Part shown: piece after piece, positions 42,802 through 62,958 of the stretch
Layout: the number at the start of each line of letters is the position of its first letter
Position numbering within the stretch: the first letter of the stretch is position 1
Assembly: GCA_044225505.1 (NCBI GenBank)
Contig: JBGAIN010000003.1
Span: forward strand, 1 to 64,000
Direction of reading: 5' to 3'
Source of the DNA: Limisphaerales bacterium
Lineage (GTDB): Bacteria > Verrucomicrobiota > Verrucomicrobiia > Limisphaerales > SIBE01
DNA: 64,000 bases
Made by a program: the position numbers and the translations under genes
Notes under the pieces: model-generated
Databases searched by the model: none
Told to the model about the DNA's origin: nothing
The model's input: only the letters and a program-made list of their open reading frames with translations

Positions 42802-42828
42802 TAAAGATCGTCTCCAGCTAACCGATAC
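42802..42828 (+). promoter_or_regulatory. Sigma-28 (FliA/SigD)-type promoter
   Basis: TAAA(G)-N15-ACCGATAC versus consensus TAAA-N15-GCCGATAA: exact spacing, upstream of a chemosensory operon. Confidence 0.7.
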
Positions 42829-43010: not shown

Positions 43011-44126
43011 ATGACCTCTGCTCGACGTTCCCCTCTCGTCTTTGTGGTCGACGATGATGCAATCACGACTTGCATGATCTCGAAGGTGTTACAAAGCGCT
43101 GGGTTTCGGGTCTCGAGTGCGCTGGACGGTGCCAAGGCGATGGCGTGCATTGCGGAGACCGTGCCGGACCTGATCCTTCTGGATGTCAACCTCCCGGATG
43201 CTTGTGGATTGGATATCTGTCGGCGCCTCAAGAGCCAGCCTGGTGCCAGTGAAACCCCCGTCCTTTTCATCTCTTCAAACCATGATACCGCGTCCAAGGT
43301 GAAGGGATTTGAAGCTGGAGCCGTTGATTATATTCCAAAACCGATTGTCGGCGAAGAAGTGATCGCGCGCGTGCGGTCGCATCTGCGCCTGAAGCAGGCT
43401 TACGAAGAGCTCGCGAAACTCCATGCGGAGCGGGTGGAACGTTTGGCCGGAGCTCAAGAAAGTCTCCTGATCACTCCCGAATCGCTTCCCGAAGCGAAGT
43501 TCTCGGTAGCGCTGCGGCAAGTGGTCAAAGCCGGGGGCGATTTCTACGACGTTGTGATCGCAGGGGATCAATTGACGGACTACATCGTGGCCGACGCGAG
43601 CGGCCATGACTGGGGCAGTTCGATCTGGACGGCGGCACTAAAAACGCTGATTGGACAATACGCGACGGCAACCGACTCCCCGTTGACCATCGTCCAGTCG
43701 ATCAACAACGCCCTGCGCCGCATCGTGCCGGAGGGGATCTATTTCACGTTGAGCTACGCACGACTGAACCGGTCGACCGGCCGGCTTCACCTGGTCAACG
43801 CGGGCCACCCGCCAGCGCTGGTGCTGCGCCAAGCAGAGAATCAGACGCTACTGATTGGAGCGGACGGGGATGTGGTCGGGGCCTTTGCCGACGCTTTGTT
43901 TGGAACTTTGGACGTTACGGTCAGGGCTGGAGATCGCGTCTTTTTGCTATCGGATGGATTGATTGAGCTTCACGGATCGCGTGAACAAGGATTGCGGCAA
44001 CTGGAATCGGTTTGCCTACGGCATCGAGATCAGGCTTTGACCGCTGCTGTGGAGGGTACCGTGGAGGTGCTCACCGCCAATACCGAAGTGACGGACGACA
44101 TTCTCCTCATGGGGATTGAGGTATGA
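43011..44126 (+). CDS. Response regulator fused to PP2C/SpoIIE phosphatase (RsbU/RsbY-like)
   Basis: REC: VVDDD, LILLDVNLP, DYIPKP. PP2C: GGDFYD, ADASGH, NAGHPP, LSDGLIE, DDILLM. Confidence 0.93.
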   Translation: MTSARRSPLVFVVDDDAITTCMISKVLQSAGFRVSSALDGAKAMACIAETVPDLILLDVNLPDACGLDICRRLKSQPGASETPVLFISSNHDTASKVKGFEAGAVDYIPKPIVGEEVIARVRSHLRLKQAYEELAKLHAERVERLAGAQESLLITPESLPEAKFSVALRQVVKAGGDFYDVVIAGDQLTDYIVADASGHDWGSSIWTAALKTLIGQYATATDSPLTIVQSINNALRRIVPEGIYFTLSYARLNRSTGRLHLVNAGHPPALVLRQAENQTLLIGADGDVVGAFADALFGTLDVTVRAGDRVFLLSDGLIELHGSREQGLRQLESVCLRHRDQALTAAVEGTVEVLTANTEVTDDILLMGIEV

Positions 44127-44560
44127 AGCGAAGGGCTCCGAAGTATTTTAGCTACGAGCGAACCATCCGGTCGCGCCTGGATGAGGTCCATGGACTCTGC
44201 CTGGAAGTCCGAAAACTGTTGAGCACTAACGAACAGAACGGCGCGAACTTTGGATTCGAATTGGCTGTGCGCGAATGCCTGAACAATGCGGTTCTGCATG
44301 GCAACCTGAATAACCGGCAGAAACACATTTCGTTTGCACTCCGCTCCGGCCGGAAGTGGCTTTGGGTTCAGATTACGGATGAAGGGCCAGGTTTCGATTG
44401 GCGCCGAGCCAACCGCCAACCAGTCGCGGACGAACTCGGAAGCAATGGACGAGGATTAGCCATCATCCGTTCCTATTGTGCGGGGGTCCAATTCAACCGC
44501 CCGGGAAACCGCGTGACGCTGAAACTTCGCCGATCAAAAAGGGAAACAGACAAACCATGA
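44123..44560 (+). CDS. RsbW/SpoIIAB-like anti-sigma factor Ser kinase
   Basis: ECLNNAVLHG, ITDEGPGFD, NGRGLAII; ATGA overlap with the previous gene. Confidence 0.9.
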   Translation: MKRRAPKYFSYERTIRSRLDEVHGLCLEVRKLLSTNEQNGANFGFELAVRECLNNAVLHGNLNNRQKHISFALRSGRKWLWVQITDEGPGFDWRRANRQPVADELGSNGRGLAIIRSYCAGVQFNRPGNRVTLKLRRSKRETDKP

Positions 44561-44877
44561 GCGAATTCACTATTAAGAGAGATACCAAACTTTGCCACGT
44601 CACATTGGCGGACGATCTGACCGCAGTCCAAATTCCGGCGCTCCGGACAGCCCTCAAGGCCGAACTGGATGGCGGTGTCCGGGAGGTCATCGTCGATATG
44701 AACCAGACGGTAATGTTGGACTCCAGTGGCATTGGGTTGCTCATTGCGACGTTTAACACGCTCAACCGCCAACAAGGACGCCTGCGCGTCGTCAATGCGT
44801 CACCGGACATCGTGCAGTTGCTGCAGACGATGCGTTTGGTGAACCGCCTGAACGTGACCGGCCGCGCCAATAATTAA
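44557..44877 (+). CDS. STAS anti-anti-sigma factor (RsbV/SpoIIAA-like)
   Basis: 106 aa from ATG 44557 (ATGA overlap); VIVDM..MLDSSGIGLL with the phospho-Ser site. Confidence 0.92.
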   Translation: MSEFTIKRDTKLCHVTLADDLTAVQIPALRTALKAELDGGVREVIVDMNQTVMLDSSGIGLLIATFNTLNRQQGRLRVVNASPDIVQLLQTMRLVNRLNVTGRANN

Positions 44878-44883
44878 TTGCTT

Positions 44884-47800
44884 ATGGAGGACGAGGTCTT
44901 TAACGAGTTTCTGAACGAGTCCCGCGAGCATCTCGCCAACATCGAGGCTGACCTTCTGGCCATCGAAGAGGCCGGGGCCAATCTCAACGAGGAACTGGTC
45001 AACAAAACGTTCCGCGCCGCTCATTCGATTAAAGGAGGCGCAAGCTTCTTCGGTCTGACCCGGGTCAAAGACCTCGCGCACAAAGCGGAGACCGTGCTCG
45101 ACATGTTGCGTTCCCGGCGCATGACGCCCAACGCCGAGATCACCAATGTGTTGCTGGCCGCGTTTGACCGCTTGCGGGACATGATCAACAACCCGAAGGA
45201 GCGCGAAACAGCGGACATTAGCGAATTGGTGACAAACTTGACAGGGCTAGCTTCCTCCTACTTGCCCGCAGATCAGAAAGCGACCTTAACCCAGACGGTG
45301 ACCCTGTCAGGCGCTAGTGAGGAGCGCCCGGTCAAGGTCAGCCAGGTGGATTTCGATCGCGCTCGGCGTGCGGGTCAGTGTGTCTACGAAATCGATTACG
45401 ACTTAATTCACGACATCGAACAGAAGGGAGCGAACGTTCTCAAGATCTTTCGCGAACTGGAAGAATGCGGCGAGATTCTTGACTGTCAGCTGGACTTGGA
45501 CGCGCTCGGGACTTTAGATGGCCCCATCGGAAAAGAGCTGCCACTGCGGCTGGTTTTCGCTGCCACTCTGGCCCCGGAGAGCGTCCACGAACTGGTGATG
45601 GCTCCGCCCGACCGCATTCAGCTGCTCTTCGACCCGAGCAAGCCCGATTCCCTGCCCCCCGTCTCTACTCCCGAACCCGTCGCCACACCCAGTGCGGAAG
45701 CCGCTCTGGAGACCATCCCGTCGGTCGCACTCGAAACGGACTCCGAACCACCACCGCGATCCGAGTCGGATCCTGAGCCTGCGCCGAGCAACACCGCTTC
45801 AGCGCGGTCCGCTCCGAGTGAGCCAGCGTCGGCCAATGGGACAGCTGGTGCGCCCGCTGCGGCCCAAGAGACGTTGCGTGTCAGCGTCGCCTTGCTCGAG
45901 TCGCTCATGAATCTTGCCGGAGAACTGGTCCTCAGTCGCAATCAACTTTGTGCGTCAACCGCGCAAAAAGATGAGGACGCACTTTCCGCCGCCAGCCAAC
46001 GGATCAATCAGGTGACGTCGGAGCTTCAGGACGCCATCATGCAGACGCGGCTGCAACCGATCGGCAACGTCTTCGCCAAGTTCCCTCGCTTGGTGCGAGA
46101 CATGGCGCAAAGCCTGCAGAAAGAGATCCAACTCGATATTCGCGGCAAAGACGTCGCGCTGGACCGCAGCTTGATCGAGGGTCTTTCCGACCCCCTCACC
46201 CATATGGTGCGCAATGCCGTCGATCATGGCATTGAGCGCCCAGCCGACCGCGTACGCACAGGCAAACCGAGTCTGGGCACGATCCGGCTTGAGGCCCGTC
46301 ACGAGGCCGGTCAGGTCGTCGTCGAAATCGCGGATGACGGCAAGGGAATTGACGTCGCGCGGGTCGCTGATTCGGCCTTGAAAAAGGGACTGGTCACCCA
46401 GGAAAAACTCCGCGCAATGTCAACCCACGACAAATTGGCGCTGATCTTTCTCCCGGGGTTGTCGACGGCAGAAAAGGTGACCGACCTCTCTGGCCGCGGT
46501 GTCGGCATGGATGTGGTGAAGACCAACTTGGAACGTCTCGGCGGGAAGGTTGATATCACCTCCGAGATCGGCAAAGGGTCGCTCTTCCGCATTAAACTAC
46601 CGCTCACGCTAGCCATTATCCCATCCCTAATTGTTTCGGTCGGAAAAGACCGTTTCGCCATTCCTCAGATTAACGTCGAAGAACTCTTGCGGATTCGTCC
46701 CGAAGAGATCCGAAAACGCATCGAAGTGGTCGGTGAAGCGGAGGTGCTGCTGCTCCGGGACAAGATCATTCCGTTGGTTTACCTGGATCGGTTGCTGGCC
46801 GGAAAATCCCAGCCCAATGCCAGTTCGGAAACCACCGCCACCCCAAGCGAATCCACCGCGAACAAAACCCTTGAAGTCGCAGTGGTGACAACTGGCACCA
46901 CCCGCTACGGGCTGGTCGTCAGCACGTTTCACGAAACGGAAGAGATCGTGGTGAAACCGCTCGGCCGCCATTTAAAAGGGCTGCGGGAATATGCGGGCGC
47001 CACCATTCTGGGCGACGGCACAGTCGCCCTCATTCTGGACGTGGCTGGCGTTGCCGGGAAAGCGGAGCTGACCTCCGTCAACCGCCGCACGGACCAGGCC
47101 GCGCATGCCTCCGAAGAAGGCCGCACGGACGAACTTCAGTCACTGCTCCTCTTCCGGAACGCGGTCGATCAAGTCTGCGCTGCGCCGCTGGACAGTGTTT
47201 TACGCATCGAACGCATCACGCCAGATCGGATCGAGACCGTGGGGCAGCGCCGGACCGTTCAGTATCGGGGTGCGTCTCTGCCTCTGGTGACACTCTCGGA
47301 CGCGGCACAAATCCAACCGCTCGCCGACACCCGCGATCTGGCCGTCATTGTCTCCAATGTGCATGGTCGCGAGATCGGGCTCCTGGGCGCGATGCCCGTG
47401 GACGTCGTCGAAAGCCGCGCCGTCGTCGATCGCTCGACGCACCGGCAAACGGGCATTTCAGGCTCGGCTATTATTCGGGATCGCACAACCCTGATCGCGG
47501 ATGTGAGCGAGTTAGTCGCGGCGCTCTATCCTGAGTGGACACAACCCGCGGAACCGGCCACGACATCGGAGACAAGCCCTGGCAGCGTGACCCTTCTCCT
47601 CGCTGAGGATTCGGACTTCTTCCGAGCGCAGATCAAGAAGTACTTAGAGCAAGCTGGCTTCCATGTCCTGGATGCGCCCGACGGTGAAGCCGCTTGGGAT
47701 CTGCTCCTCGATCATGCCAGCCAAGTTCAAGCCGTCGTTACCGATGTGGAAATGCCTCGGCTCACAGGCTTGGAATTAGCGCGCCGCATTCGCGGCGACG

Positions 47801-47976
47801 AACGCGTCTCGAGCCTCCCGGTGATTGCCTTGAGTTCCCTCGCTGGAGAAGAGGATATCGCCAAAGGCAAGGCCGCGGGAGTTGATGATTACTTGGTGAA
47901 GCTCGACCGGGATCAATTGCTCACCAGTGTCAACGCTTTGATCGAACGCAAACCCGCCCTGGAACACGCCCTTTAG
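44884..47976 (+). CDS. cheA: Hybrid CheA (Hpt-P2-like-dimer-HATPase-CheW-CheW-REC)
   Basis: FRAAHSIKG, LMNLAGELVLSRN, HMVRNAVDHG, DDGKGID, SGRGVGMDVV, LPLTLAI, two CheW-like domains, and a REC with AEDS..VTDVEMP..YLVK. Confidence 0.95.
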   Translation: MEDEVFNEFLNESREHLANIEADLLAIEEAGANLNEELVNKTFRAAHSIKGGASFFGLTRVKDLAHKAETVLDMLRSRRMTPNAEITNVLLAAFDRLRDMINNPKERETADISELVTNLTGLASSYLPADQKATLTQTVTLSGASEERPVKVSQVDFDRARRAGQCVYEIDYDLIHDIEQKGANVLKIFRELEECGEILDCQLDLDALGTLDGPIGKELPLRLVFAATLAPESVHELVMAPPDRIQLLFDPSKPDSLPPVSTPEPVATPSAEAALETIPSVALETDSEPPPRSESDPEPAPSNTASARSAPSEPASANGTAGAPAAAQETLRVSVALLESLMNLAGELVLSRNQLCASTAQKDEDALSAASQRINQVTSELQDAIMQTRLQPIGNVFAKFPRLVRDMAQSLQKEIQLDIRGKDVALDRSLIEGLSDPLTHMVRNAVDHGIERPADRVRTGKPSLGTIRLEARHEAGQVVVEIADDGKGIDVARVADSALKKGLVTQEKLRAMSTHDKLALIFLPGLSTAEKVTDLSGRGVGMDVVKTNLERLGGKVDITSEIGKGSLFRIKLPLTLAIIPSLIVSVGKDRFAIPQINVEELLRIRPEEIRKRIEVVGEAEVLLLRDKIIPLVYLDRLLAGKSQPNASSETTATPSESTANKTLEVAVVTTGTTRYGLVVSTFHETEEIVVKPLGRHLKGLREYAGATILGDGTVALILDVAGVAGKAELTSVNRRTDQAAHASEEGRTDELQSLLLFRNAVDQVCAAPLDSVLRIERITPDRIETVGQRRTVQYRGASLPLVTLSDAAQIQPLADTRDLAVIVSNVHGREIGLLGAMPVDVVESRAVVDRSTHRQTGISGSAIIRDRTTLIADVSELVAALYPEWTQPAEPATTSETSPGSVTLLLAEDSDFFRAQIKKYLEQAGFHVLDAPDGEAAWDLLLDHASQVQAVVTDVEMPRLTGLELARRIRGDERVSSLPVIALSSLAGEEDIAKGKAAGVDDYLVKLDRDQLLTSVNALIERKPALEHAL

Positions 47977-48003
47977 AAGATGACTGAAGACTAGATTCGT
48001 ACC

Positions 48004-50277
48004 ATGAACCTGACGACCATTAGATTAGCGAAACGACTGACGATCAGTTTCGGCTCGTTGACCTGCTTAACGATCGCGATGGCGGTGCTCTCGCTGTGGG
48101 GTATTGCCAAAATGCACCGCGCTTCCGAAGAACTTGTCCGGGAGAGCAACCTTAGCCGGCTAGCGTGGGGCGTCATGGACTCAATCGATGGCATTCAGTT
48201 GGAGCTCTTTAAACTCGCTTCGACATCGGACAAAGCCGCTCAGCAACGAGCCCGCGAAGCGATCGAGAAGGCGCGAGCCTCGTACAAATCAGGCATGGAC
48301 TCTCTCCACGCCCAGTCCACCACCGCAACCGGCCGACAACTCGTTGAAGCTATAGCGACCGGAGTGGCGGAAGCTCGCAAAACGAACGATGAGATCATTG
48401 ACCTGGCCACCCATAGCAAGACAACCGAAGCGCTGGCACTTGCCACAGGGCGCGGCAACGAACTGATCGAGAATGTCGACACCAAAATCGAGGCCCTTCT
48501 GCAGTGGCGTGAGAAAGAGATGGCCGAGAAGGTTGCAAAAAACGACGCTTCACTGGTCCAAATGCGCTGGACTCTACTGTCGGCAGCGTTCGCCGTCATT
48601 GCGCTTTCCGGCTTCTTTAGTGTTCTCATTACCCGTAGTATTACTCGACCCATTTCCGCCAATGTCAGCTTGATCGAAACCGTCAGCGGCGGCGATCTTA
48701 CTCACGAAGTGCCCCCCAACTTGCTGCAGCGGCCTGACGAAGCGGGAGATCTATCACGGTCCATTCAAAAGATGATCGAGAATTTCCGCCGACTCCTGCA
48801 CGAAATGTCCGGCGGTGTGCAAACCTTGGCCTCAGCCTCATCCAACCTTTCCGAGGTTTCCAATCAATCGAATACGAGCGTTCGGGCCACATCCGACAAA
48901 GCCTCCACGGTTGCTGCCGCTGCGGAGGAGATGAGCGCCAACGCCACGTCCGTTGCCGCGGGCATGGAACAGGCGACCGCCAACCTGACGACAGTGGCGA
49001 GCGCTACCGAGCAGATGACGTCCACGATCAGCGAGATCGCGACGAATTCAGAGAAAGCCCGTTCCATTACGAGCGAAGCCACGCAGCAAGCCGTTCAAGT
49101 GACACAATCCATGCAGCAGCTCAGCGAAGCAGCGCAAGCGATCGGCATCGTCACCGAAACGATTACCAATATCTCCGATCAAACGAAGCTCCTGGCGTTG
49201 AACGCGACGATTGAAGCGGCTCGAGCGGGCGCCGCTGGCAAAGGTTTCGCCGTGGTCGCGCACGAAATCAAAGAACTGGCGCGACAGACCGCCGAGGCCA
49301 CAGAGGACATCAAATCCAAGGTCGGCGGCATCCAATCATCGACCCAAGGAACCCTGTCGGACCTGAGCCGAATCTCGGACGTCATCAAGCATACCAGCGA
49401 GATCGTGAACACGATCGCGACGGCCATCGAAGAGCAATCGGCCGTCACCAAAGACATCGCGACTAACGTCAGTCAGGCAGCGAGCGGGGTCAAAGACGCC
49501 AACGAACGGGTGGCGCAGATCTCGGTCGTCTCCGGCAGTGTCGCGCGCGACGTGGCCACGGTCAACCAAGCGGCCGGTGATATCGCCACTGGCAGCGAAC
49601 AAGTGATGACGAGCGCGGCAGAATTGTCCCATTTGGCGGAGGGTCTACAAAAGGCCGTCGGTCGATTCCAGCTCCGCTCGGAAGACGTGACTAGCTCACA
49701 ACAAACTCAAGGAACGGTTGCCGAGATGTCCGAGGGAGAATCTGTAATTCCCAGGACAACGCAGCGTCCCTTCATTGAATGGAGCGAAAGCCTGTCCGTG
49801 GGCGTTCCGGCGATGGATAGCCATCACAAGAAGTTGGTGGATCTAATTAACCTGTTGCACACCGCCATGCGCTCAGGACAAGGGCGCCAAGCTGTCGAAC
49901 CAGCCCTGAACGAACTCGGGAAATACGCCGAGTATCATTTTTGCGCCGAAGAGAAGTTAATGAAACAGCACCGCTGCGCCGGTTTGGCAGAGCAGCAAGC
50001 CGCCCATTCCAAACTGGTGGAAACTGTCCGCGACTTGAAACAGAAACTGGCAGCTGGGCAACAAGGGCTCGGCGTGGAAGTGCTCACCATGTTGAAAGAC
50101 TGGCTAGTCAACCACATCCAGAAAAAGGACAAGGGTTGTATGTTGCCGGTTTGCGCTGCCGCCCGGAAGCACTCGGGACCAGGCCGCCATTCTGACCACC
50201 CCGAATCCGGATCCTCTCACCCACAGTCTGTCACCACCCGCTCCACTGCCTCCGAACTTACCCACGTTAACCTATGA
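48004..50277 (+). CDS. Methyl-accepting chemotaxis protein (4-helix-bundle sensor, HAMP) with C-terminal hemerythrin domain
   Basis: 2 TM segments, [61 protein letters not shown]. Confidence 0.93.
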
Positions 50278-52235
50278 TCTCAGGCTTCAACCGCTTAAAC
50301 TTATCCACGCGAATCGTATCCGTCACGGTCGCCATTCTCACGGTCGTTTTGATCGTCAACTACCTGGTATTTATCCGGGGCTACAAGTCTCGTGCCCAAG
50401 ACGCGATGGTGGAGAAGGCCAAAGCCTTCAGCGCCGTCGCCGATGAGGCCAAGAACCATGCGAGCCTTTTGCATCGGGTCGGAGCTTTCAACCAACAAGC
50501 GCTCAGCGACGAATTGACCGCAGATCTGGCCGCGGGCAAGCGCGCGGATGCCACTCGCTTTTTCAAGACCATCCCCGTTGTCGCCGGCTGGACAGCCGCC
50601 CAGGAAGCTGCCAAACGCGAGTCGATCACGTTCCGCATCACGTCCTTTGAATCGCGGAACAAAGAACATGAACCTGCCCCGGGCTCTTTCGATGAAAAGC
50701 TCCTACGCCAACTTACGGCCCAAGTGAGCGCAGGCCAGGGCGAAAGTATTCATGCCGTCGACAGTACGGATAATACGCTTCACTTCATGCGCGCCATTAA
50801 GCTCACCGAAAACTGCCTGAGCTGTCACGGCGTTCCAGGGTCGCAATGGGATCTTGCCAAAACCGGCAAGGATCTGACAGGCCACCCGATGGAAGGATGG
50901 CAAGCGGGCTACATGCACGGCAGCTATCATGTCGTCATGCCACTCGGGCCGGTAGACGCTCAGGTTCGTGCGTTCATTCTCAATGGATTGGCCTGGACGG
51001 TGCCGTTGGGCCTGGGCGCCCTGGCCGCGTTTATCTATTTGATGGGACGCATCATTCGCCGGCCCATCGGCGATCTCATCCACTGTACACAGGCGGTCGC
51101 TAAAGGCGATCTTACCCAGGACGCTCCTCCCGCCCTCCTGGCGCGGCACGATGAACTCGGCGAACTGGCGCGCGCCATGCAGACTATGGCCCAAAGCCTC
51201 CGCAGCCTCCTCCGGGACTTGTCCGGAGGCATTCGCACCATCGCGTCCTCATCGGGCGGTCTATCTCAGGTTTCGGATCAAATGAGCTCCGGCTCCAAGG
51301 AGACGGCTTCGAAGGCCAATACGGTTGCGGCCGCTGCCGAAGAAATGAGCGCCAATTCGGTCTCTGTGGCAGCTGGGATGGAGCAGGCGGCCACCAATTT
51401 GACCACCGTCGCCGGCGCGACCGAAGAAATGACGTCGACCATCTCCGAAATCGCGACCAATTCCGAGCGCGCACGAACGATCACGAGCGAAGCTATGGAA
51501 CAAGCCACTCGCGTTCGCGGACTGACGCAAAAGCTGAGCGAAGCGGCCCAGGCCATCGGCAAGGTCACAGAAACGATTACGACCATTTCAGACCAAACCA
51601 AGCTCCTGGCCCTGAACGCGACCATCGAGGCGGCGCGCGCCGGTGCGGCCGGAAAGGGATTTGCGGTAGTCGCTCATGAGATTAAAGAGCTTGCTCGCCA
51701 AACCGCAGAAGCCACCGAAGACATTAAATCCAAAGTCGGCGGCATTCAGACTTCCACCAGCAGTACGATGGAAGATTTGGAGAAGATTTCTCAAGTCATC
51801 GGGCAGGTGAGCGAAATTGTAAATACCATTGCCTCCGCGATCGAAGAGCAATCCGCGGTCACCAAAGACATCGCACGCAACGTCTCCGAAGCCGCAACCG
51901 GAGTGCAAGAAGCGAATCAACGCGTCGCGCAGATCTCTGTCGTCTCGCAATCGGTGGCCAAGGACGTGGCCACGGTCAATCAAGCCGCGGGAGAAATGGC
52001 CTCCGGAAGTGAAGAAGTCCTATCGAGCGCAGCCCAACTGTCGCAACTGGCAGGCGAACTGCAGCGCCTGGTGAACCAGTTTAGAACCGGGGACCCCGTC
52101 GGCGAAGAGAACACTCCGAGTCAGAGACGCGCGCCATCCTCGGGATCAGGGAACCACAACGGAAATGGCCAAACCAAGGCACGAGGCATGACCCCTATCT
52201 CCCGTCGGATTGCGGCTGAGTCAACGTCGTTATAA
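50274..52235 (+). CDS. Methyl-accepting chemotaxis protein with periplasmic c-type heme (DUF3365/Tll0287-like) sensor
   Basis: 2 TM segments; periplasmic [16 protein letters not shown] (CxxCH at 50814-50828) and GHPMEGW; HAMP; MCP signalling domain. Confidence 0.92.
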
Positions 52236-52295
52236 CCCATCAGGGTCGTTCGTCGAATTGAGGCGCCGGGCCCTCGACCTAGGAAACAGTGGCAT

Positions 52296-52793
52296 ATGAT
52301 TACCACGTCGAATCAAACTCAACTCGGAGATGGGCTGTTGGTCTGCAGCTTCATTTTGGGCGGTGCCGTCTTCGGAATTGACGCACAGGAAGTCCAGGAG
52401 GTAGCGCGAGTCGGTGATATTGCTCCCGTGCACCAATCGGCACCCGAAGTCGTAGGGATCCGAAACTTGCGCGGCCGCATTGTTACCGTTCTGGATTTGC
52501 GGGTCTGCCTGAACTTAGGTCGAGTCGGCCCTTCGGCTGAAAACCGGATTCTCATCGTCAGCTGTCAGGGGGAGCCTGTCGGACTGCTCGTCGATAGCGT
52601 GGCGGATACGGTGGCCGTGGAACCGGGTGGCTTGGCACCGCCGCCGCCCAATCTTCACGGTTTACAGGGTCGGACGCTTCGTGGCGTTTGCCGCGGTGAG
52701 GACCGATTGGTGGCGTTGTTGGATCTGGAAACACTCTTTGGGTCGGATTCCCACGCGGTGCAGACCGCGGATGTCGAATTGCGAAATTCATGA
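52296..52793 (+). CDS. cheW: CheW adaptor
   Basis: FGIDAQEVQEV, GIRNLRGRIVTVLDL, VGLLVDSV. Confidence 0.93.
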   Translation: MITTSNQTQLGDGLLVCSFILGGAVFGIDAQEVQEVARVGDIAPVHQSAPEVVGIRNLRGRIVTVLDLRVCLNLGRVGPSAENRILIVSCQGEPVGLLVDSVADTVAVEPGGLAPPPPNLHGLQGRTLRGVCRGEDRLVALLDLETLFGSDSHAVQTADVELRNS

Positions 52794-53920
52794 AGCTGAG
52801 AGTCCTGGTCGCCGACGATTCAGTGCTCTACCGGCGCGTGCTGGCGGATGTGCTCAGCACGTTGCCCGGCGTCGAAGTCGTCGGCACGGTTGGAAACGGC
52901 AAACTCACGCTCGAGCGGGTGCGAGAATTAAAGCCCGATTTGCTCACTCTCGACATGGAAATGCCCGAGATGGATGGATGGACCGTCTTGGAGAACCTAC
53001 AGAAGGAGCAATCCCCACCGGCCGTCCTTGTGGTCAGTGGCCTGACACGGCGAGGCAGCCAGCTGACCGTGAGAGCTCTGGAAAGGGGTGCGTTTGACTT
53101 CATCACCAAGCCGGAGACAACCAACGCAGACCTCAGTCGCGAAGGCATTCGCCGGGAACTCTCGCCGCGAGTCTGGGCGCTCGCTCAGCGCCTGGAAGTG
53201 CGAGGCATTCTGACCCGTAAAACCGGGTTGACACCAGGCAAGGCCCATGTAGAAGCGAAGCTCGACGACCGCGGACGCAACGGGAACGGAAAGTCAGAAA
53301 AGGTGGCTATTCCGAACCGCTTCACCGCGTCGGTTAAACCTGAGTTCGTCCTGCTGGGCGTCTCTACCGGCGGCCCGAACGCTCTGGCCCGCGTCCTACC
53401 GGCGTTGCCCGCCAATCTGGGGGTTCCCATCCTAATCGTGCAGCACATGCCGCCTATCTTTACCCAAACCCTGGCGGAGAGCCTGGCAGCCAAGTCCTCC
53501 ATTCGGGTGCGCGAAGCAGTGCACAACGAATCTGTTGAGCCGAACACCGCTTATATCGCCCCGGGCGGCAAACAAATGCGCTTAGCTCCCGTGCTCGGCG
53601 CCCGGCCCGTGTTGCAGATCACGGATGATCCTCCCGAGAACAACTGTCGCCCAGCGGTCGATTACCTGTTTCGGTCCGCCGCGAATCATTTTCCCGGCCG
53701 GTCGATGGCTGTCATTCTCACCGGGATGGGCAGCGACGGCACCTTGGGGTTGCGCTTGCTTAAACGGCATGGCTGTACCGTGATTGCGCAGGACGAATCC
53801 AGCTGTGTCGTTTATGGGATGCCCAAGGCCGCGGTCGACGCGGGTGTGACCGACGCTGTACTGCCATTGGACGCCATCGCACGGAGCATCAGCCAAGTGG
53901 TGCGAACCGGCAGCTTATGA
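52790..53920 (+). CDS. cheB: Chemotaxis response-regulator methylesterase CheB
   Basis: REC VADDS..TLDMEMP; esterase GVSTGG, QHMP, RPAVD, ILTGMGSDG. Confidence 0.96.
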   Translation: MKLRVLVADDSVLYRRVLADVLSTLPGVEVVGTVGNGKLTLERVRELKPDLLTLDMEMPEMDGWTVLENLQKEQSPPAVLVVSGLTRRGSQLTVRALERGAFDFITKPETTNADLSREGIRRELSPRVWALAQRLEVRGILTRKTGLTPGKAHVEAKLDDRGRNGNGKSEKVAIPNRFTASVKPEFVLLGVSTGGPNALARVLPALPANLGVPILIVQHMPPIFTQTLAESLAAKSSIRVREAVHNESVEPNTAYIAPGGKQMRLAPVLGARPVLQITDDPPENNCRPAVDYLFRSAANHFPGRSMAVILTGMGSDGTLGLRLLKRHGCTVIAQDESSCVVYGMPKAAVDAGVTDAVLPLDAIARSISQVVRTGSL

Positions 53921-54765
53921 GCGCAGCTGTTCTAACCCGTGATGAGCTGACCGTCTGGTCGCGTTACGTCCACGAGATCTGCGGTATCTTCCTCGACGAT
54001 TCCAAGGGTTACCTTCTCGAGACCCGGTTAAGCGGCTTGTTGCGGGAGACAGCAGCGCGTGGTTTCACGGAGCTTTACCAGAAGGCCAAGGCCGACGGAA
54101 CCCAAACGCTCCGCCGCAAAATCGTGGACGCCATTACCACGAACGAGACGTCGTTCTTTCGCGATTCGACTCCATTTGACCTGCTACGGCATAAGTTGAT
54201 TCCCGAACTGATCGATCGACGGCGGATCGCAGGGACGAAGCCGATTCCGATCCGCATTTGGAGTGCCGCCTGTTCCACAGGACAAGAGGCTTACAGCATC
54301 GGTATCGTTCTCAAAGAATTGCTGGGGGACCTGCGGGCTTATGATATCCGGATTGTCGGGACTGATATCTCAGACCGCGCGGTAGCCCAAGCGAGTTACG
54401 CCTACTTCAGCCGCTTAGAATTGGACCGCGGCATGTCTGCCGACAAGATCACTCGCCACTTCACCGCCGCGGGCGATCGCTGGAAAGTCCGCGATGAAAT
54501 CCGCGCCATGGCCAGTTTTCGCGTGGCCAACCTGTTGCAGCCATTATCATTTCCAGCTCCCTTCGATATCGTCTTTTGCCGGAACGTCGCGATCTACTTT
54601 ACAGAACCGGATAAGGCTCAACTTTTCCGCAATATTGGCAAACACCTTGCCAAAGACGGGACTTTGATTATTGGCTCCACAGAGTCGATCGGAGGGGTAT
54701 GTCCGGAGTTTGAACCCCATCGTCACATGCGTGGGGTGTTCTATCGTCTGAGGAAGTCCCCATGA
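53917..54765 (+). CDS. cheR: Chemotaxis methyltransferase CheR
   Basis: ITTNETSFFRD, IWSAACSTGQEAYS, GTDIS, FDIVFCRNV. Confidence 0.96.
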   Translation: MSAAVLTRDELTVWSRYVHEICGIFLDDSKGYLLETRLSGLLRETAARGFTELYQKAKADGTQTLRRKIVDAITTNETSFFRDSTPFDLLRHKLIPELIDRRRIAGTKPIPIRIWSAACSTGQEAYSIGIVLKELLGDLRAYDIRIVGTDISDRAVAQASYAYFSRLELDRGMSADKITRHFTAAGDRWKVRDEIRAMASFRVANLLQPLSFPAPFDIVFCRNVAIYFTEPDKAQLFRNIGKHLAKDGTLIIGSTESIGGVCPEFEPHRHMRGVFYRLRKSP

Positions 54766-55688
54766 GCAAACTCGCGTCTGCCAGGCATGAATTGCGAACC
54801 CCGCTAAATGCAATTCTTGGTTCAACCCAACTCTTACTCACCGGCGAGCCGCTGCCCGCAACCGCCCGCTGCCAAGTGGATACCATTCACCAATCAGCCG
54901 AGCGCCTTCTCGCGCTGATTGACGACGTCCTGCACGTGTCAGGTGCGGAAGAGTGCGCTCCTCCGGTCAGTCCAGAACGGATCGTCCTGGCCGACGCTAT
55001 CGACGAAGCCGTTGGCGTCATTCGCTCGCAAGCGAAAGCCCAGCAACTGTATTTCCAATGCACTCAAGCGAGTGATTTGCCGGAAAACATCTCCGTTGAT
55101 CCACGCTGCCTACAGCAAGTTCTCGCCAACCTAATCGGGCATGCGATCCAAAGGACCTCGGTCGGGTCCGTCTGCCTCGATGTTAGCCGCAATGGCAGTT
55201 GCGCACGCTTTCTCATCATTGATACCGGAAGTGATCTTTCGCCCGAAGTGCTTGCGATGCTCCTTCAGCCATCCCTTGAACTCGAACCAAAGCACGCCTC
55301 CCTCAGGAGTTCGGAATTTGGTCTTTTGGCCGCGAAGAACATGCTGGAGAGAATGGGAATCGCATTCCAATTCGAGCGCGACGAGGGAGAAGGGTTCACG
55401 TGTTGGTTCGATTTACCGCTGCCATCCGATATCGGCTCATTCCCGCACTCTCTCAATGCCAGCCCAAACGGCGAAGCAGACGCAACGTCCGCAAACGCCG
55501 TCTCCGGCTCCGTCCTGGCTCAACTCAAAGAACTGGCTTCACGGGGCGATATTCTGGGCTTGCGCACGCTCCTGGAGAGCCTTCGCGCAGCCGCCCAGGC
55601 GGATCGCGATGATACCGTCGAGCACCTCCTCAAGCTGACGGTGGAATGCAAAATCCGCGCCGTTCGAGAACAACTGAATGCCCTATGA
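54762..55688 (+). CDS. Sensor-less histidine-kinase-like protein with intact H-box and degenerate ATP-binding domain
   Basis: HELRTPLNAILG at residue 9. N-box reads NLIGHAIQRT, G1 reads DTGSDL, G2 reads SSEFGL. Confidence 0.8.
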   Translation: MSKLASARHELRTPLNAILGSTQLLLTGEPLPATARCQVDTIHQSAERLLALIDDVLHVSGAEECAPPVSPERIVLADAIDEAVGVIRSQAKAQQLYFQCTQASDLPENISVDPRCLQQVLANLIGHAIQRTSVGSVCLDVSRNGSCARFLIIDTGSDLSPEVLAMLLQPSLELEPKHASLRSSEFGLLAAKNMLERMGIAFQFERDEGEGFTCWFDLPLPSDIGSFPHSLNASPNGEADATSANAVSGSVLAQLKELASRGDILGLRTLLESLRAAAQADRDDTVEHLLKLTVECKIRAVREQLNAL

Positions 55689-56821
55689 AAGAGAAGATTC
55701 TCATTGTCGACGACACGCCTGCGAATTTGCAGGTCCTGGTCGGCTTCCTTTCCGGATGCGGCTACCAACTGATGATCGCGGATGACGGTCTGGCGGCGCT
55801 CGAACAACTCTCCCACACGCCCGTCGATCTCATTCTCCTTGACGTGGCCATGCCCGAAATGGACGGATTCGAAACCTGCCGACGGATCAAGCAACTCTCG
55901 AACTCGAAGAATACGCCCGTTCTCTTTCTCACAGCCCGCTCCGAAATCTCCGAGAAGTTGAAGGGGTTTGCCTCGGGAGGAGTTGATTACATTACAAAGC
56001 CCATCCAGAAAGACGAGGTCATCGCGCGCATTCAGGCCCACCTGACGATCGTGCGCCAAGGTCGCCAACTGGAGGAACTTCTCGAACAACGCCAGCGCTT
56101 CATGCGCATCGCAGCGCATGATCTCCGCAACCTCCTGGCTGTCATCGTTGGATTTGCCCAAGTCGGGAAAGAGTGGGACAACCCGGAAACCAAACGGCTG
56201 GCGTTCGACCGGATAGGGACGGCTTGCGAGAACATGCAGGCCATTATCGAGGGATTCTTAAGCTTGCCCAACGCGCGATCCGAGAGTGAACCGCATCAAG
56301 TGTTCGAGTTGCGAGAACTCATTGAGCAAGTCATCGATCAGTCCGCCTTCGGAGCCCAGTGCAAACACATCGCCCTAACCCGTCGCCTGCCAGAGGGTTC
56401 TCTAGCCGCATTCGGCAATCTCGCACACACCCATCAAATCCTCACCAACTACGTCACGAACGCCATTAAATACAGCCCTCGCAATACGCACACCCTGCTT
56501 TCGACGTTCCGGCGGGGTGAGTTCTGGCGAGTCGAAGTCCAAGACCAGGGTCCAGGTGTCCTCCCGGAAGAACGAGAAAACCTTTTTGTTGAATTCGGAT
56601 CGGTCTCAAATAAACCAACAGGCGGTGAATCCAGCACGGGCGTTGGCCTTTCGATCGTAAAATCTCTCGCCGAACGGCAGGGCGGAACTGTCGGAGCCGA
56701 ATTTCCCCCCGACGGAGGCTCGATCTTCTGGTTTGAGATTCCGGCCGCGAACGGCGTGACGGGACGGGTTCCCGCTGTCCAGGCCCTGGCAGCGCCTTCA
56801 CCTCAGTCTCGCTCGGTCTAA
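55685..56821 (+). CDS. Hybrid REC-histidine kinase (cytoplasmic)
   Basis: IVDD..LILLDVAMP..DYITKP; AAHDLRN; TNAIKYS; DQGPGV; STGVGLSIV. ATGA overlap at 55685. Confidence 0.93.
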   Translation: MKEKILIVDDTPANLQVLVGFLSGCGYQLMIADDGLAALEQLSHTPVDLILLDVAMPEMDGFETCRRIKQLSNSKNTPVLFLTARSEISEKLKGFASGGVDYITKPIQKDEVIARIQAHLTIVRQGRQLEELLEQRQRFMRIAAHDLRNLLAVIVGFAQVGKEWDNPETKRLAFDRIGTACENMQAIIEGFLSLPNARSESEPHQVFELRELIEQVIDQSAFGAQCKHIALTRRLPEGSLAAFGNLAHTHQILTNYVTNAIKYSPRNTHTLLSTFRRGEFWRVEVQDQGPGVLPEERENLFVEFGSVSNKPTGGESSTGVGLSIVKSLAERQGGTVGAEFPPDGGSIFWFEIPAANGVTGRVPAVQALAAPSPQSRSV

Positions 56822-57051
56822 TTCACCTGCATACGAAAGGTATGACACTGCCCCGCGATGGCCTACGAGCTCGAAAGAGGGAACCTGACGAGAGCCGCTT
56901 TTCATCTCACTCGGTCAGGGAAACATCGCTTGCCTTTTCGATCATTCTTAGCTCGCTAGCCACCCCAAGGCTCATCGCGCTTATGTTCAAACCTCGAAGA
57001 CCCGTTTCCGCGCGGAGTGGGGCCTGAGGCGTTGTGCTCCGGAGACCTCCC

Positions 57052-60000
57052 ATGGCGATCCCCAGTAACGCTCCTTCCAAGGATAACCTCACGAGCGTGC
57101 CTAGCTGGAACTGGGCTCGGCAGCCAGGCCCCTGGATTTACCTCTTGTCCCTTCTGCTCCTCGGAGGCGGAAGCTGGGCCGTTTGGCAACGTGGCTTGGA
57201 AATCGATAGCCACATGCGCAATCAGTTACTCTCTCAAGCATCGGGCATTGCGCAGACCATTGACTCTGACCGTATCAAGACTCTGTCGTTCTCCCTTGCT
57301 GACAAAACCAATGGAGCGTTCCTCGAAATTCGGCAGCAGATGATTGCCTATGGCAAAGCCATGGGCTTGCGCAGCATCTACAGTCAGGGGTTGCGAAACG
57401 AATCGATTGTCTTCGGTCCAGAAAACCTCAGCGAACAAAGCACGCAGGCATCGCCTCCGGGCACGATCTACCGTCACCCTAGCAAGCAGAACGTCGCCGT
57501 TTTCCGCAATGGCCAACCTTTTACCCAAGGCCCGTTCCACGACGAGTACGGAAACTTCGTCAGCGCGTTTGTGCCCATCCGCGACAGCAGGACGGGCCAA
57601 GTGTTGATGGTCGTCGGTTTGGACAAGGATGCGAAAGACTGGTACCAACAAATCTGGCGCTCCTCGATCGTCCCAACGATTTTTGTCATCGGGCTCTCTC
57701 TCATTCCCGTCCTCGGACGCTCCCTCCTTGGGTGGCGCAACCGCCAGCAAGAGCATGCACCGGCTTGTTTGAACCATGCGGAGACACTGATTACTGGAAC
57801 TTTCGGCCTCATGCTCACGTTGGCCGCAGCGTTTTGGCTCGGTGATCGAGAAGAACGCGGACACAAGAGTATTTTCCACCATATCGCTGACGGCCAAGCT
57901 ACAACCGTTCGCGAAGCAGTCCGCTCCTTGCGTGATTCCTTGCGGATTGGGTTTGAACACGATTTCGGCGTCGAGCCCGATCATGGTCGCGAGCGCTTCC
58001 ATCGCGACGCCGGCCCGTTAATCCGACGCGCCATTCTTACAACTCTGGCATGGGCTCCCGCTGTCCCAGCCGCGGAAAGGATTCGGTTTGAGACCGACCT
58101 CCGGCAAGCTGGAATGACGAATTGGGAAATGTTCGAACGGGACTGGCGCGGGCAGAAAGCGCCGGTCAAAGACCGTCCAATCTACTATCCCACGTTGTTC
58201 GAAGAGCCAGTCGTAGAAAACAGCAGCATCATTGGCAGCGACATGGCAGGCGATCCCTTTCGTTACGCGGCTCTCGAAGAAGCCGCTCGCACCGGACTGC
58301 CAGCAGCGACAGACCCGTTCACACGACAAAATGGAACCGAAAGAACTCGTACTCTCGTTATTGTCTCTCCGCTCTATCGCACAATCCCGTCGTCGGCAAC
58401 CACCCCCCTTCCCGAAGCGCCGACCCGGTTGCCAGCAGGTGTCGTGGCGGCCGAACTCCGTTGTGAAAAGTTCCTCAACGAATTGGTGCCAGCACCGACC
58501 ACCGGCGAGCGGATGCTAAGCGCGCGCTTGTTTCAGCTCGGAACGAGCGAACCGCCCGCATGGCTGGCCTCATGTCCTTCCACCCAGGCTGCCCCGCTCC
58601 GCGCGGCTTCGAACGCTCTGCATGACGGTGCCCATCGATTGGAAGTAGTGCGCCCTATTTTCGCCTTCGGAAAAACCTACGCCCTGGTGATGGAGCCTGG
58701 GCCAGCCTTCCTGGCGGCTCATCCTGCACTTGTCCGTTGGCTATCCGTGACCCTCGGTCTGCCCCTAACAGCAGTCGCTACGGCCGTCGTCCACCTTATT
58801 CGGCGTCGCCAGAAATGGCTGGAATCGGAAGTTCGCGTGCGAACCGAGAAGCTGCGCACGAGCGAGGAATCGTATCGGCGGCAATTCGCCGACAACCAGG
58901 CGGTAATGTTGTTAGTCGATCCACAAACTGGGCGGATTGTCGATGCCAACTCGGCAGCGGCCAAGTTCTACGGGTATACGCGCGACCAACTCCAGACCAT
59001 GTGCATTGCGGAGATCAACGAACTGCCCGAACCGGATGTTCTCCGCGCCTTAGATTCTGTGGTCAAGCAGAGCAACGCCCATTTCGAATTTCAGCATCGC
59101 CTGGCCGATCGGTCCACCCGCAATGTCGAGGTTCACTCCAGCGTCATCAGGATCGAAGGACGTCCCCTCATACACTCCATTGTTCACGATATCACCGAAC
59201 GCAAAGCGGCGGAGAAAGCTTTGGCTACAAGCCAGCGACAGTTGGCCACGGCCATGAGCTTAGCCCGCCTGGCCAATTGGGAGTTCGATGTTACCACGGG
59301 AATGTTCACTTTCAGCGCTTCCTTTTATGCGATCTACGGATCAACCGTAGAAGCGGAGGGAGGGTTGCAGATGTCGGCCGAGGATTATTGCAAACGCTTT
59401 CTTTTCCCAGAAGATCGAACGGTCGTCAGCGAAGGGGTCCGGCGGGCGCTTGAAACGGACGATCCGGCATTTACCTGGCAGATTGAGCATCCCATTCTTC
59501 GTCGAGACGGTGAGATTCGCCAGGTTCTCGTCAAACTGGGCATTACCAAGGATGCATCCGGTCGCACCGTGCAACTCCACGGGGCGAATCAAGACATCAC
59601 TCAGCACAAACGCCTCGAAGCGACCTTGCAGGCGCGCCAAGCCAAACTCGACAGCATCTTGCGGACGGCCCCAGTGGCCATCGGCGTCGCTGTGAACCGG
59701 GTTCTCACCGAGGTCAATCCGGCCATGTGCGCCTTGACTGGCTATGCCCCACTCGAATTAATCGGCCAACCCACCCGCCTCCTCTACGCGAGCGACGTTG
59801 ATTTTCAACGTGTCGCATCCGAGGGTTATAGCACGCTGGGAGAAAACAGCAGCTTTGCGCTCGAAACGCGCTGGAAGTCCAAGTCGGGAGAGATCATAGA
59901 GCTACTCCTGAGCGCATCTCCGATCAGTGCCAACGATCCGTCTCAGGGAATAACCTTTGTGGGACTGGACATCACCGAGCGGAAGCGCTCCGAATTGGCA

Positions 60001-62958
60001 ACGCGTTCAACCGCCGAGCGCCTGCAAATGCTCTGGCAGGCCCTGGAACAAAGTCCCGCGAGCGTTGTCATCACGGATCTCCGTGGAGCGATCGAATATG
60101 TCAATCCCAAGTTTACGGAAGTCTCCGGATATAGTCTGGACGAGGTGCGAGGACAAAACCCACGCGTGCTGCGCGGCGAAGGATTGAATCCCGAAACGTA
60201 CCGGACGCTCTGGGCGACCATATCGGCTGGGCAGAACTGGCGCGGCGATTTCTGCAATCGAAAAAAGAACGGTGAGCTCTTTTGGGAATCAGCCCTGATT
60301 TCGCCGATTCGCGCTAGCTCGGGCGAGGTCACGCGCTACCTGGCCATTAAGGAAGACATCACCGAAAGAAAGCGGGCGGAGCAGGATTTGAAGGAGATGA
60401 ATGGCCAGCTCCAACTTGCCTCCCAACGAGCCAACGAAATGGCCGTCCAGGCCGAGCAAGCCAGTGTGGCCAAGAGCCAGTTCCTTGCGAACATGAGCCA
60501 CGAGATCCGCACGCCGATCAACGGCGTTATCGGAATGACCAGCTTGCTTTTGGACACCTCTCTCAACGAGGAACAACGCGAGTACGCCACCCGGGCTCGG
60601 AGCAGTGGTCAAGCGCTGCTTTCCGTCATCAACGACATTCTGGACTTCTCGAAGATTGAAGCTGGTAAACTCGAACTCGAAGTGCTCGAATTCGACCTGC
60701 GCAAGAGTCTTGAGGAGGTCGTTGATCTCTTAGCCTCGCCCGCCGGAGAGAAGAAGCTAGAACTGGCTTGTTTGATCGAGCCCAACGTTCCACTGCAACT
60801 GTGTGGTGACCCGAGCCGCTTGCGCCAAATCCTTTTGAACCTCGGCGGTAATGCCGTCAAATTCACAACTCGTGGCGAAGTGGTCTTGCACGTTGGCCTC
60901 GAGTCTGAGAATTCGGAGCGCGCAACAGTGCGATTCGCGGTCCGGGATACTGGCATCGGCATCCCCGCCGAACGCCTTCCAGCGCTCTTCTCCCCGTTCA
61001 CGCAAGTCGACGGGTCCACCACGCGCCGATATGGCGGAACAGGATTAGGCTTGGCGATCTGCCGACAGCTAGCTGAACTGATGCAAGGGACAGTTGGCGT
61101 CGAAAGCGAGATCGGGAAAGGGTCGACCTTCTGGTGTACCGTCATTCTGGCCAAACAACCTCGCGATACTGGCCTCCAGAACGGTTCAGATGAAAGGCTG
61201 AAGGGCCTCAAGATCCTGGTCGTGGACGATCACTTGGCCAGCCGTCAGTCGGTCGCACAGCAATTAACTGCGCTCGGATGCCAACCGGTCGAAGCTGCCG
61301 ATGCCATGGCTGCATGCGGAATGATTGCCGAAGCCCATCACGCCGGCCAGCCTTGCCAACTCGCGCTGGTCAGTCGCACGGTCTTCCAGAGCGATCCCAC
61401 GAGAATGACCAGCACCGGAGTGCCTCTTATCAAACTGGCTGGATTGAACCAGCGCGAGAGCGATGCCACACTCCGTCGGCAGGGCGTCGCCGGGAGGCTC
61501 ACCAAACCTTGTCGCATCGCGGATCTGGAACAATGCGTTCTACGCCATATCTTTGAATCACGGAACAGCAGTCTTCGCTTTGATTCGGGCGAAGACGCCA
61601 CCGCCCATTCCTCAAAAGTGCCTCTGCGGATTCTGCTCGCGGAAGACGACACAACCAATCAACTCGTCGCCACAAAGATTTTGGAACGGTTTGGCTACGC
61701 GGTGCAGGTGGTCCCCAATGGTCGAGAAACGCTGAAAGAGCTCGCCGCGCGACCTTATGACCTAGTGCTCATGGACTGCCAGATGCCCGAGATGGATGGG
61801 TTTGAGGCGGCTCGATCAATCCGCAAGGGAGTTGCCGGGAAACCCAACGCGGAAATTCCCATCATCGCGCTCACAGCGAACGCTTTGAACTCGGATCGCC
61901 AGCAATGCCTGGAAGCCGGGATGTCCGACTACATCTCCAAGCCGATCGAATTCCAAACGCTCGCCACCGTGCTCGATCGCTGGGAACGCCAACTCGGAGC
62001 GCCCAGCAAGAATCGGCACGCCACGACTCTCGCTCTTCCCACGTCCAAGCCAGGCACGGCGGCGGAGTCGTGCGTGACCACAAGCGGTGACGTCTCGCAA
62101 CCTTCTTCAGTCGCTCTTGATCCCATCCGTTTCTCCAAAAGGATGCGAGGCGACGCGGTCTTGGCACGTCGCGTCGCGAGTCAGATTCTCGCGGAAATGC
62201 CTGGGCACATTCGATCACTGGAAACGGCCGTCAAGAACCACGACCAATCCGCGCTGGCCCAGAAAGCGCGCCAGGTCGCTGGCGCGGCATCGCTTCTCAG
62301 CGCGGAGTGCCTGGCGGCGGCAGCTCAGGAACTGCTCAAGCTTGCTCAAAAAGCGCCTCCAGTAGACCCGACCGATGCGCTCAAACAGCTTGAATCTGCG
62401 TGGGAAACAGTATTCCAACACCTGGAGGCGTTGACTGGTTTGCGCTCCGAACCCAATGTGCCGGGGCCGGACTCATCCCTCAGCGAGCAATCAGCGCGCA
62501 ATTCTGTTAGCTCTCCGCAGCTAACGGATACGACCGACCCAGCCGCAGTAGCGCCTGCGAGCGCGACCTTGGGTCAGACGGGGAGTCTCTCTCCGAAAAA
62601 CACAGAATCGGATGAGTCTGTTCCACAGATTCATAACTCTGCCGCGTTTCTTCAACGCGTCATGAACGATCGCCAGCTCGCGCAAACTCTCAGCGAGAAA
62701 TTCCTCGCCGAGTTGCCTCAACAAATCTCCGAGATCAAACTTGCGATTGCGAGTGGAGACGCGGAGCGGATCACTCAATTGGCGCACCGTCTGCGCGGTT
62801 CCTCTGGGCTCCTGGGCGGCGAGATACTGCAGAACTTGGCCAGCGAGATTGAAATGACCGGGAAGGCAGGGCGTGTAAAAAGCCTTGAAGGATATGTGCC
62901 GTCGCTGGAAACCGCATCGGCAGCACTCCAAGAGCAGCTCCACAAGTTCTGTGGATAG
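57052..62958 (+). CDS. Giant hybrid sensor kinase: two periplasmic sensors (Cache-like and CHASE), 4 PAS, HisKA, HATPase, 2 REC, 2 Hpt
   Basis: 4 TM segments; CHASE-like [19 protein letters not shown]; four PAS/PAC ends ([28 protein letters not shown]); [50 protein letters not shown] before ATG 57052. Confidence 0.93.

Follow-up and report, generated by a model that had tools for sequence, protein, structure and literature searches.

Loci that combine che genes with an anti-sigma antagonist and a serine phosphatase/kinase have already been published, namely Che1 of Shewanella oneidensis with CrsR and CrsA, and the ancestral (stage 1/2) F7 systems (accessible parts of PMC9855816 and PMC7184735). 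We have now analysed a che locus with partner-switch genes in a 64,000-nucleotide stretch of DNA from a Limisphaerales bacterium (contig JBGAIN010000003.1, positions 1 to 64,000 of the forward strand), which is referred to below as the window. An operon of 11 genes, all on the + strand (43011..56821), begins there with a trio encoding a REC-PP2C phosphatase, an RsbW-type kinase and a STAS protein and continues with genes for CheA, two methyl-accepting chemotaxis proteins (MCPs), CheW, CheB, CheR and two proteins of the histidine kinase type. The Shewanella and F7 systems have F7-class components, 36-heptad (36H) receptors, CheY and CheD, an anti-sigma domain within CrsR and a known target, RpoS, whereas the system described here is of class F5 and its kinase and phosphatase are separate genes. 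A REC-PP2C-RsbW fusion resembling CrsR or HsbR heads one related locus (L103:5395, genome G407).

The F5 systems Che1 of A. brasilense and R. centenum share with the operon a CheA with two CheW domains and REC (PMC10542144, accessible part), the gene order A-(M)-W-B-R and, in the case of the A-W-Y-B-R cluster of strain Sp7, the same CheA clade. However, cheY is present in A. brasilense (L202) and missing here, and a P2-like insert in CheA, receptors of 42-heptad (42H) length and the upstream trio are additional in our operon. In S. meliloti, a STAS-only gene of a che operon encodes CheS, which binds CheA and alters the handling of CheY (PMC12654446, a review, accessible part); that CheA belongs to another class, no cognate Ser kinase or phosphatase is described for CheS in the accessible text, and binding in our system is a proposal. 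The HptB-HsbR(PA3346)-HsbA(PA3347) pathway of Pseudomonas leads from a hybrid kinase via a REC-gated phosphatase to Ser56 of a STAS protein and has a link to σ28 (PMC8256260, accessible part). In contrast to the system proposed here, this pathway is not coupled to an array and acts through FlgM, and HsbR is bifunctional, whereas our enzymes are separate. The HmpUVW proteins of Nostoc, a cyanobacterial system, are presumably linked to a chemotaxis-like locus. They form a non-canonical partner switch in motility whose STAS target is given as unknown (PMC8256260, accessible part). An action of STAS proteins on chemoreceptors was suggested for Campylobacterota (PMC9239204, accessible part), and the alpha and beta cluster types of Geobacter (accessible parts of PMC2577667 and PMC8235581) gave no match with the trio.

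The first-pass annotation considered the system possibly undescribed in this lineage. No paper on the F5 arrangement was found in the open literature (subscription journals and supplements lay outside the scope), but che loci with a partner switch in general are known, as Shewanella Che1/CrsRA and the stage-1 F7 loci show. The F5/42H assignment, a σ28-like site and the apparent dependence between STAS and the P2-like domain are results of the present analysis. We tentatively interpret the locus as a member of a widespread F5 sub-lineage whose receptors have 42 heptads. In this sub-lineage, a Ser kinase/phosphatase pair under two-component control might determine whether STAS is bound to the P2 domain of CheA, and the whole system would belong to the σ28 regulon.

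Class of CheA and its receptors

CheA (44884..47976) consists of one Hpt domain (His47), the P2-like insert, the dimerization and kinase domains, a duplicated CheW domain and a C-terminal REC domain (Asp954), which is the F5 architecture. Two CheW domains and a C-terminal REC are described as the class trait (PMC10542144, accessible part). In a quick IQ-TREE analysis of 48 rows, the protein fell into a clade of 29 rows with the CheA proteins of A. brasilense Sp7 and Microvirga (SH-like approximate likelihood ratio test, SH-aLRT, 100). The Sp7 protein, whose locus has the order A-W-Y-B-R, was also its best full-length match in the plasmid collection (40%). Because of the two-CheW+REC architecture and the clade shared with A. 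brasilense Che1, its sequence assigns CheA to the flagellar class F5 and not to the alternative cellular function (ACF) class to which the first-pass annotation had referred it. ACF, in which CheA often has several Hpt domains and a single CheW, was rejected since one Hpt and two CheW domains are present and the protein groups with F5, in a tree without a named ACF reference. The hallmarks of class F9 are a DosM double-signalling receptor and a triple CheW (PMC9321776, accessible part); neither was found, the receptor length is that of 42H, and an F9/44H assignment was therefore rejected as well. The active-site residues of CheA and of CheB (52790..53920; REC Asp55, Ser192/His219/Asp316) are all intact. 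CheW (52296..52793), CheB and CheR (53917..54765) were identified by Pfam.

Both receptors have two transmembrane segments. MCP1 (48004..50277) has a four-helix-bundle (4HB) sensor and a C-terminal DcrH-like hemerythrin domain, and the periplasmic domain of MCP2 (50274..52235) is Tll0287-like and bears a c-heme motif, CxxCH, at residue 181. The HAMP motif and the tip lie 165 amino acids apart, the corresponding distances being 158 (6s18) and 144 (3zx6, a Tsr chimera), and the C-terminal arm after the tip is 147 amino acids long in relatives of the receptors and 153 in TM1143 (2ch7). On the basis of these distances against reference structures, the receptors are assigned the 42-heptad length. 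The two orphan MCPs of the same genome match this length and, among 59 MCPs of related loci, 36 also measure 165, one measures 151 and 22 were not measurable. Alphaproteobacterial F5 receptors have 38 heptads (38H), a trait that the operon receptors do not share. The redox inputs proposed at first are borne out as far as domains are concerned, the c-heme motif and hemerythrin being present, and a redox input to the array is plausible. One iron-ligand His of the hemerythrin is replaced by Gln, as it is in L211 and L212. Moreover, receptors vary among related loci and the cluster of the same-order genome G004 carries none, which limits the redox-input reading.

Annotation and Pfam confirmed the presence and common strand of all 11 genes, the seven ATGA stop/start overlaps (44123, 44557, 50274, 52790, 53917, 54762 and 55685) and the absence of a stand-alone CheY gene from the operon, all of which had been noted in the first pass. 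Of the remaining junctions, the one between the STAS stop codon and the ATG of cheA at 44884 measures 6 nucleotides (nt); the others are 27 nt and 60 nt long. The domain order by Pfam is REC+SpoIIE; HATPase_c_2; STAS; Hpt-dim-HATPase-2xCheW-REC for genes 1-4, 4HB-HAMP-MCP-hemerythrin; Tll0287-HAMP-MCP; CheW; REC-CheB; CheR for genes 5-9, and HisKA-HATPase; REC-HisKA-HATPase for genes 10-11. The P2-like insert, the σ28-like promoter at 42802, a 1974-amino-acid hybrid kinase, and the retained His, the truncation and the lack of conservation of a pseudokinase are points that the earlier list lacked. Contigs of the public run X2, which may be the source sample, span the operon with few differences and gap-free genes. 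Run X1, which we only guess to be RNA, yielded 8 short contigs and no evidence of expression.

STAS, the P2-like insert and the σ28-like promoter

At E≤1e-40, 7222 of the 7998 scored sequences are relatives of the second-CheW/REC region of CheA. Loci were taken from GTDB (the best 80 of 601, from 2 of 64 parts scanned) and from metagenomes (the best 80 of 536, from 8 of 64 parts scanned), kin loci were added, and all were annotated with profiles built from the window and its own genome. The trio was found to be co-conserved with this CheA in several phyla, although unevenly: the complete cassette was found again in Syntrophobacteraceae, Acidobacteria, deltaproteobacteria and many metagenome loci, and partial forms occur in Fibrobacterota and Cloacimonadota. 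Among kin the distribution is patchy, this CheA type being encoded in 2 of 12 genomes of the family (one with the trio), in 7 of 200 of the order and in 9 of 400 of the phylum. Of the six order loci that were retrieved, the five close matches all have the trio and the sixth, a divergent one, lacks it. The orthologous cheA in G004 (L019:12596-15682, contig C35) lies in three frames; its cluster shares a contig with the flagellar region, the two being some 20-25 kb apart.

The catalytic residues of the trio are intact. In REC-PP2C (43011..44126; SpoIIE/RsbU type), Asp53 and four metal-binding Asp residues are intact, and each is kept in 22-23 of 23 homologues. The RsbW/SpoIIAB-type kinase (44123..44560) has intact N, G1 and G2 boxes; it is the best HATPase_c_2 match of the genome and the only stand-alone RsbW-like protein found there, and its matches to SpoIIAB and RsbW in the PDB are weak (E 0.03-0.14). 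The STAS protein (44557..44877; RsbV/SpoIIAA-like) has a predicted phospho-site, Ser56. At the sequence level, the features of an RsbU/V/W-type switch (PP2C metal Asp, GHKL Ser kinase, STAS phospho-Ser) are thus present. In single open frames, apparent RsbW-STAS fusions were seen in L115:1-786, L117:6497-7252 and L120:3952-4692.

The STAS gene appears to track cheA and the P2-like insert more closely than its enzymes. Of the 40 loci that have STAS and 2.6 kb or more of upstream sequence, 22 encode both enzymes, 16 neither and two only one, and no locus with the phosphatase or the kinase lacks STAS. A STAS-only gene adjoining cheA in a che operon, the trait known from CheS, occurs in 53 of 94 loci. 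Ser56 is retained in all 28 STAS proteins accompanied by the kinase, in 12/17 without it and in 5/8 for which the status of the kinase was undetermined; without the kinase, Asn67 persists in 13/17 and Arg93 in 12/17. In L121, L122 and L126, the enzymes of the trio are replaced by CheX and a REC-REC protein, a pair that is also encoded upstream of fliG in the window's own genome.

The insert (45286..45648, about residues 135-255) is a segment of about 120 amino acids after Hpt and before the dimerization domain, a position that fits P2. Pfam gave no P2 match in 47 family members. The structural model is confident (predicted local distance difference test, pLDDT, 87) and has a ferredoxin-like fold; its comparison with P2 of T. 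maritima CheA (1u0s) gave Z 6.3 (root mean square deviation 2.6, 67 residues aligned), which is tied with ACT domains and below Z 8, and a Foldseek search with the model returned nothing at E≤0.001. Out of 97 two-CheW CheA loci, the 94 with at least 500 nt upstream were tabulated (L039, L046 and L062 were dropped, and the table excludes the later-added L208-L213 as well as the G004 CheA with its frameshift): 50 have both STAS and the insert, 11 only the insert, three only STAS and 30 neither. STAS is therefore rarely found without the insert (3/53). The joint absence of both is nested in the tree, for example in L022 and in the Desulfobulbaceae/Desulfocapsaceae clade.

A σ28 (FliA)-like promoter, TAAA-N15-ACCGATAC (42802..42828, + strand), is located 209 nt upstream of the first ATG. 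The strict σ28 consensus matched the genome 14 times as against 6.2 expected, and the pattern, relaxed after the sites had been seen, occurs at 7 of 3412 operon heads, six of which are flagellin, che or che-adjacent receiver genes. Near-consensus sites that are stronger than that of the window precede the orthologues in G004, G576 and G540; the other three loci of the same order have weak sites. With a position weight matrix (PWM), 7/24 REC-PP2C heads passed the 95th percentile. Scans for σ70 promoters and terminators remained at chance level (3 vs 4.4 and 14 vs 16.5, respectively). Control of the operon by FliA is likely within the order and unproven in other lineages.

In the scheme that we favour, FliA would transcribe the operon along with flagellin and other che genes. 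Receptors of 42H length (with c-heme and hemerythrin domains, and the two orphan receptors) would control CheA under adaptation by CheR and CheB, and CheA's own REC domain would serve as a phosphoryl sink. RsbW would phosphorylate Ser56 of STAS, and REC-PP2C, once phosphorylated by the neighbouring hybrid kinase and/or by CheA, would dephosphorylate it, the two enzymes acting as an optional on/off switch. Unphosphorylated STAS would then dock on P2, in the manner of CheS on the CheA of S. meliloti, and alter the flow of phosphoryl groups to receivers whose genes lie outside the operon; on the motor side, the best candidate for such a receiver is a REC-REC-STAS-like regulator beside fliG/fliM. 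On the simplest reading, CheA would be the primary partner of STAS, given that the hierarchy runs from CheA-P2 through STAS to the enzymes and given the CheS precedent. That STAS binds the P2-like domain and that its Ser phosphoswitch tunes the kinase rather than freeing a sigma factor is, by gene co-occurrence and analogy, a serious possibility, although it falls just short of being probable.

Several observations weigh against this scheme. The STAS sequence is that of a canonical anti-anti-sigma factor, with TM1442, RsbV and SpoIIAA as the best PDB matches, and no natural STAS-CheA fusion was found (among 7994 candidates, none that was longer or fused reached E≤1e-15, a weak test). Corrected for the tree, the association of STAS with the insert is not significant: seven independent pairs split into 3.8 same, 0.2 opposite and 3.0 unchanged. 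The median p is 0.125, and an initial labelling gave p 0.0625. The labels are imperfect, since divergent inserts escape the P2 profile, as inspection of L054 and L040 by eye showed, and kin in the table are non-independent, some loci being near-duplicates. L136 retains STAS after a clean loss of the insert, and the insert could equally dock REC-PP2C or CheB. As for the promoter, a leave-one-out PWM ranks the site in the window only 88th among the 3412 operon heads (top 2.6%), and most of the distant homologues have no clear σ28 site (8/90 family loci vs 7/359 controls).

Sigma factors and other possible outputs

The first-pass annotation proposed that the array signals through the switch to transcription. 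The array, directly or by way of CheA, the REC of a hybrid kinase and its Hpt, would signal to REC-PP2C, and dephosphorylated STAS would capture RsbW or an anti-sigma factor and thereby free FliA or a group-2 sigma factor; given the σ28 promoter, flagellar transcription would then be subject to a feedback loop. We consider such an output doubtful, although it has precedents in Shewanella che1 CrsR/CrsA acting on RpoS and in PA3347-FlgM of Pseudomonas (accessible parts of PMC9855816 and PMC8256260, respectively). In 8 of 11 trio loci, no conserved receiver of the output type other than REC-PP2C is present, and 9 of 12 have a flanking His kinase. FliA was found in 10 of 10 genomes checked (above the cut-off in nine and split over two contig ends in the window's own genome), and group-2-like sigma factors are encoded in the latter. 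On the other hand, SigB/F/G were above the cut-off in none of five genomes, a reading of the loci, for which no sigma-profile screen was made, revealed no sigma gene, and STAS persists beside cheA without the enzymes, sometimes losing Ser56. The switch itself is thus supported by intact catalytic residues and co-conservation with CheA, but not its sigma target.

FlgM bears on both sides. It is present in both tested genomes of other phyla (G413 and G414), and in the window's own genome, which is 95% complete, it was not found by Pfam, NCBIfam or tblastn (four FlgM-like queries, best E 0.23), although a divergent FlgM is easily missed. The FlgM models are insensitive in this phylum, with one weak match (a 105-amino-acid orphan, L206:3708-4022 in G165) among 401 genomes, 51 of them with FliG. 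FlgM is either very divergent in the phylum or often lost.

The lack of CheY had been taken as a sign that the switch is the output. In 50 well-flanked loci, however, a lone receiver is absent from 42 whatever their trio status (8/11 with the trio, 14/14 with STAS only and 20/25 without STAS), and three of the 11 trio loci have one. Because the absence is family-wide, it does not single out the partner switch as the output. Among deltaproteobacterial members, L025, L038 and L169, as well as L026 and L144, have HEAT-repeat-REC (about 550 amino acids) or REC genes of about 190 amino acids by the cluster, which are possible alternative outputs.

Motor genes are at hand. The window's own genome has three CheA systems, flagellins and FliG, and FliG accompanies 9 of 10 phylum carriers of this CheA type (own genome included) as against 51/401 overall. 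CheX and a REC-REC protein of 372-375 amino acids are encoded together twice (L007:6497-8161, contig C317, and L004:14157-15763, contig C150); one copy precedes fliG/fliM and the other ends the che cluster of C150. The C-terminal part of the REC-REC proteins is STAS-like (E 9e-6 and 3e-7 to the STAS profile built from the locus), and this regulator may replace CheY in the lineage. The fliG gene itself is split over two frames (L007:8256-9297, contig C317; N-terminal part 8256-8654, the rest 8473-9297), which reflects a frameshift or an assembly error. The third che cluster (L005, contig C82:11200-21000) encodes REC, CheA, CheW, MCP, CheR, CheB, CheY, CheC and a His kinase; its CheA is long-branched and no σ28-like site was found there.

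The presence of motor genes and of the REC-REC regulator would also fit two separate modules, the F5 array acting on the motor via CheX/REC-REC and a hybrid kinase acting through REC-PP2C/RsbW/STAS on another target, e.g. a cyclic di-GMP (c-di-GMP) enzyme as in SiaABCD. Many family members lack all trio genes, and His kinases accompany the trio and not che genes alone (9/12 vs 2/31 loci). We nevertheless regard this separation as unlikely: the STAS gene stays beside cheA when the enzymes are absent and is rare without the insert, the kinase association comes down on the tree to 3 independent pairs (p 0.5, not significant), and no shared c-di-GMP gene was noticed in the trio loci, GGDEF/EAL not being among the profiles. 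A flanking His kinase is compatible both with an input to the phosphatase and with a relay that starts at CheA. In the window, a CHASE-3xPAS hybrid kinase of 1974 amino acids with two REC and two Hpt domains, one of them with the His (57034..62958, + strand, 212 nt downstream of the operon), is a candidate phosphoryl donor or relay for REC-PP2C. It is followed on the same strand by a second multi-PAS hybrid kinase of 1030 amino acids (L010:329-3418, window 63228 onward). Orthology of the hybrid kinases flanking different loci was not supported, since their cores are 56-65% identical and an unrelated paralogue in the same genome likewise reaches 63%.

Genes 10 and 11 encode a pseudo-histidine kinase (54762..55688), whose H-box His9 is kept but whose N, G1, F and G2 boxes are degenerate, and a REC-HisKA-HATPase kinase with intact boxes (55685..56821), a lineage-specific addition that G004 lacks. 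The pseudokinase looks like a truncated local remnant because its nearest relatives are intact kinases with an additional N-terminal sensor of about 200 amino acids and because no counterpart was found in G004 or any other annotated related locus; a search of the Atlas gave generic kinases only. A ChpT-like transfer by this protein from CheA-REC to REC-PP2C or the REC-kinase, which the intact H-box, the lost ATP-binding boxes and the translational coupling to cheR and the REC-kinase might suggest, is accordingly very improbable. Upstream of the operon, several large surface-protein-like open reading frames were observed, one of which (33366-39335, - strand) encodes a secreted-looking protein of 1989 amino acids.

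Significance for receptor arrays

STAS genes are common in che operons; their role is mostly unknown, the usual assumption being that a sigma factor lies at the end of the pathway. The family described here forms a natural series (trio, STAS only, neither) with a matching optional P2-like domain, in which the direction of signalling is testable with four small proteins. If a sigma factor is the target after all, the Shewanella design would be extended to F5 systems in uncultured phyla. If, on the other hand, STAS docks on CheA as we tentatively propose, the chemotaxis kinase itself would be the partner in the partner switch, and the receptor array would be controlled by Ser phosphorylation. 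Provided that the binding of STAS to P2 depends on Ser56, it would constitute a third layer of control for arrays beside methylation and His-Asp transfer.

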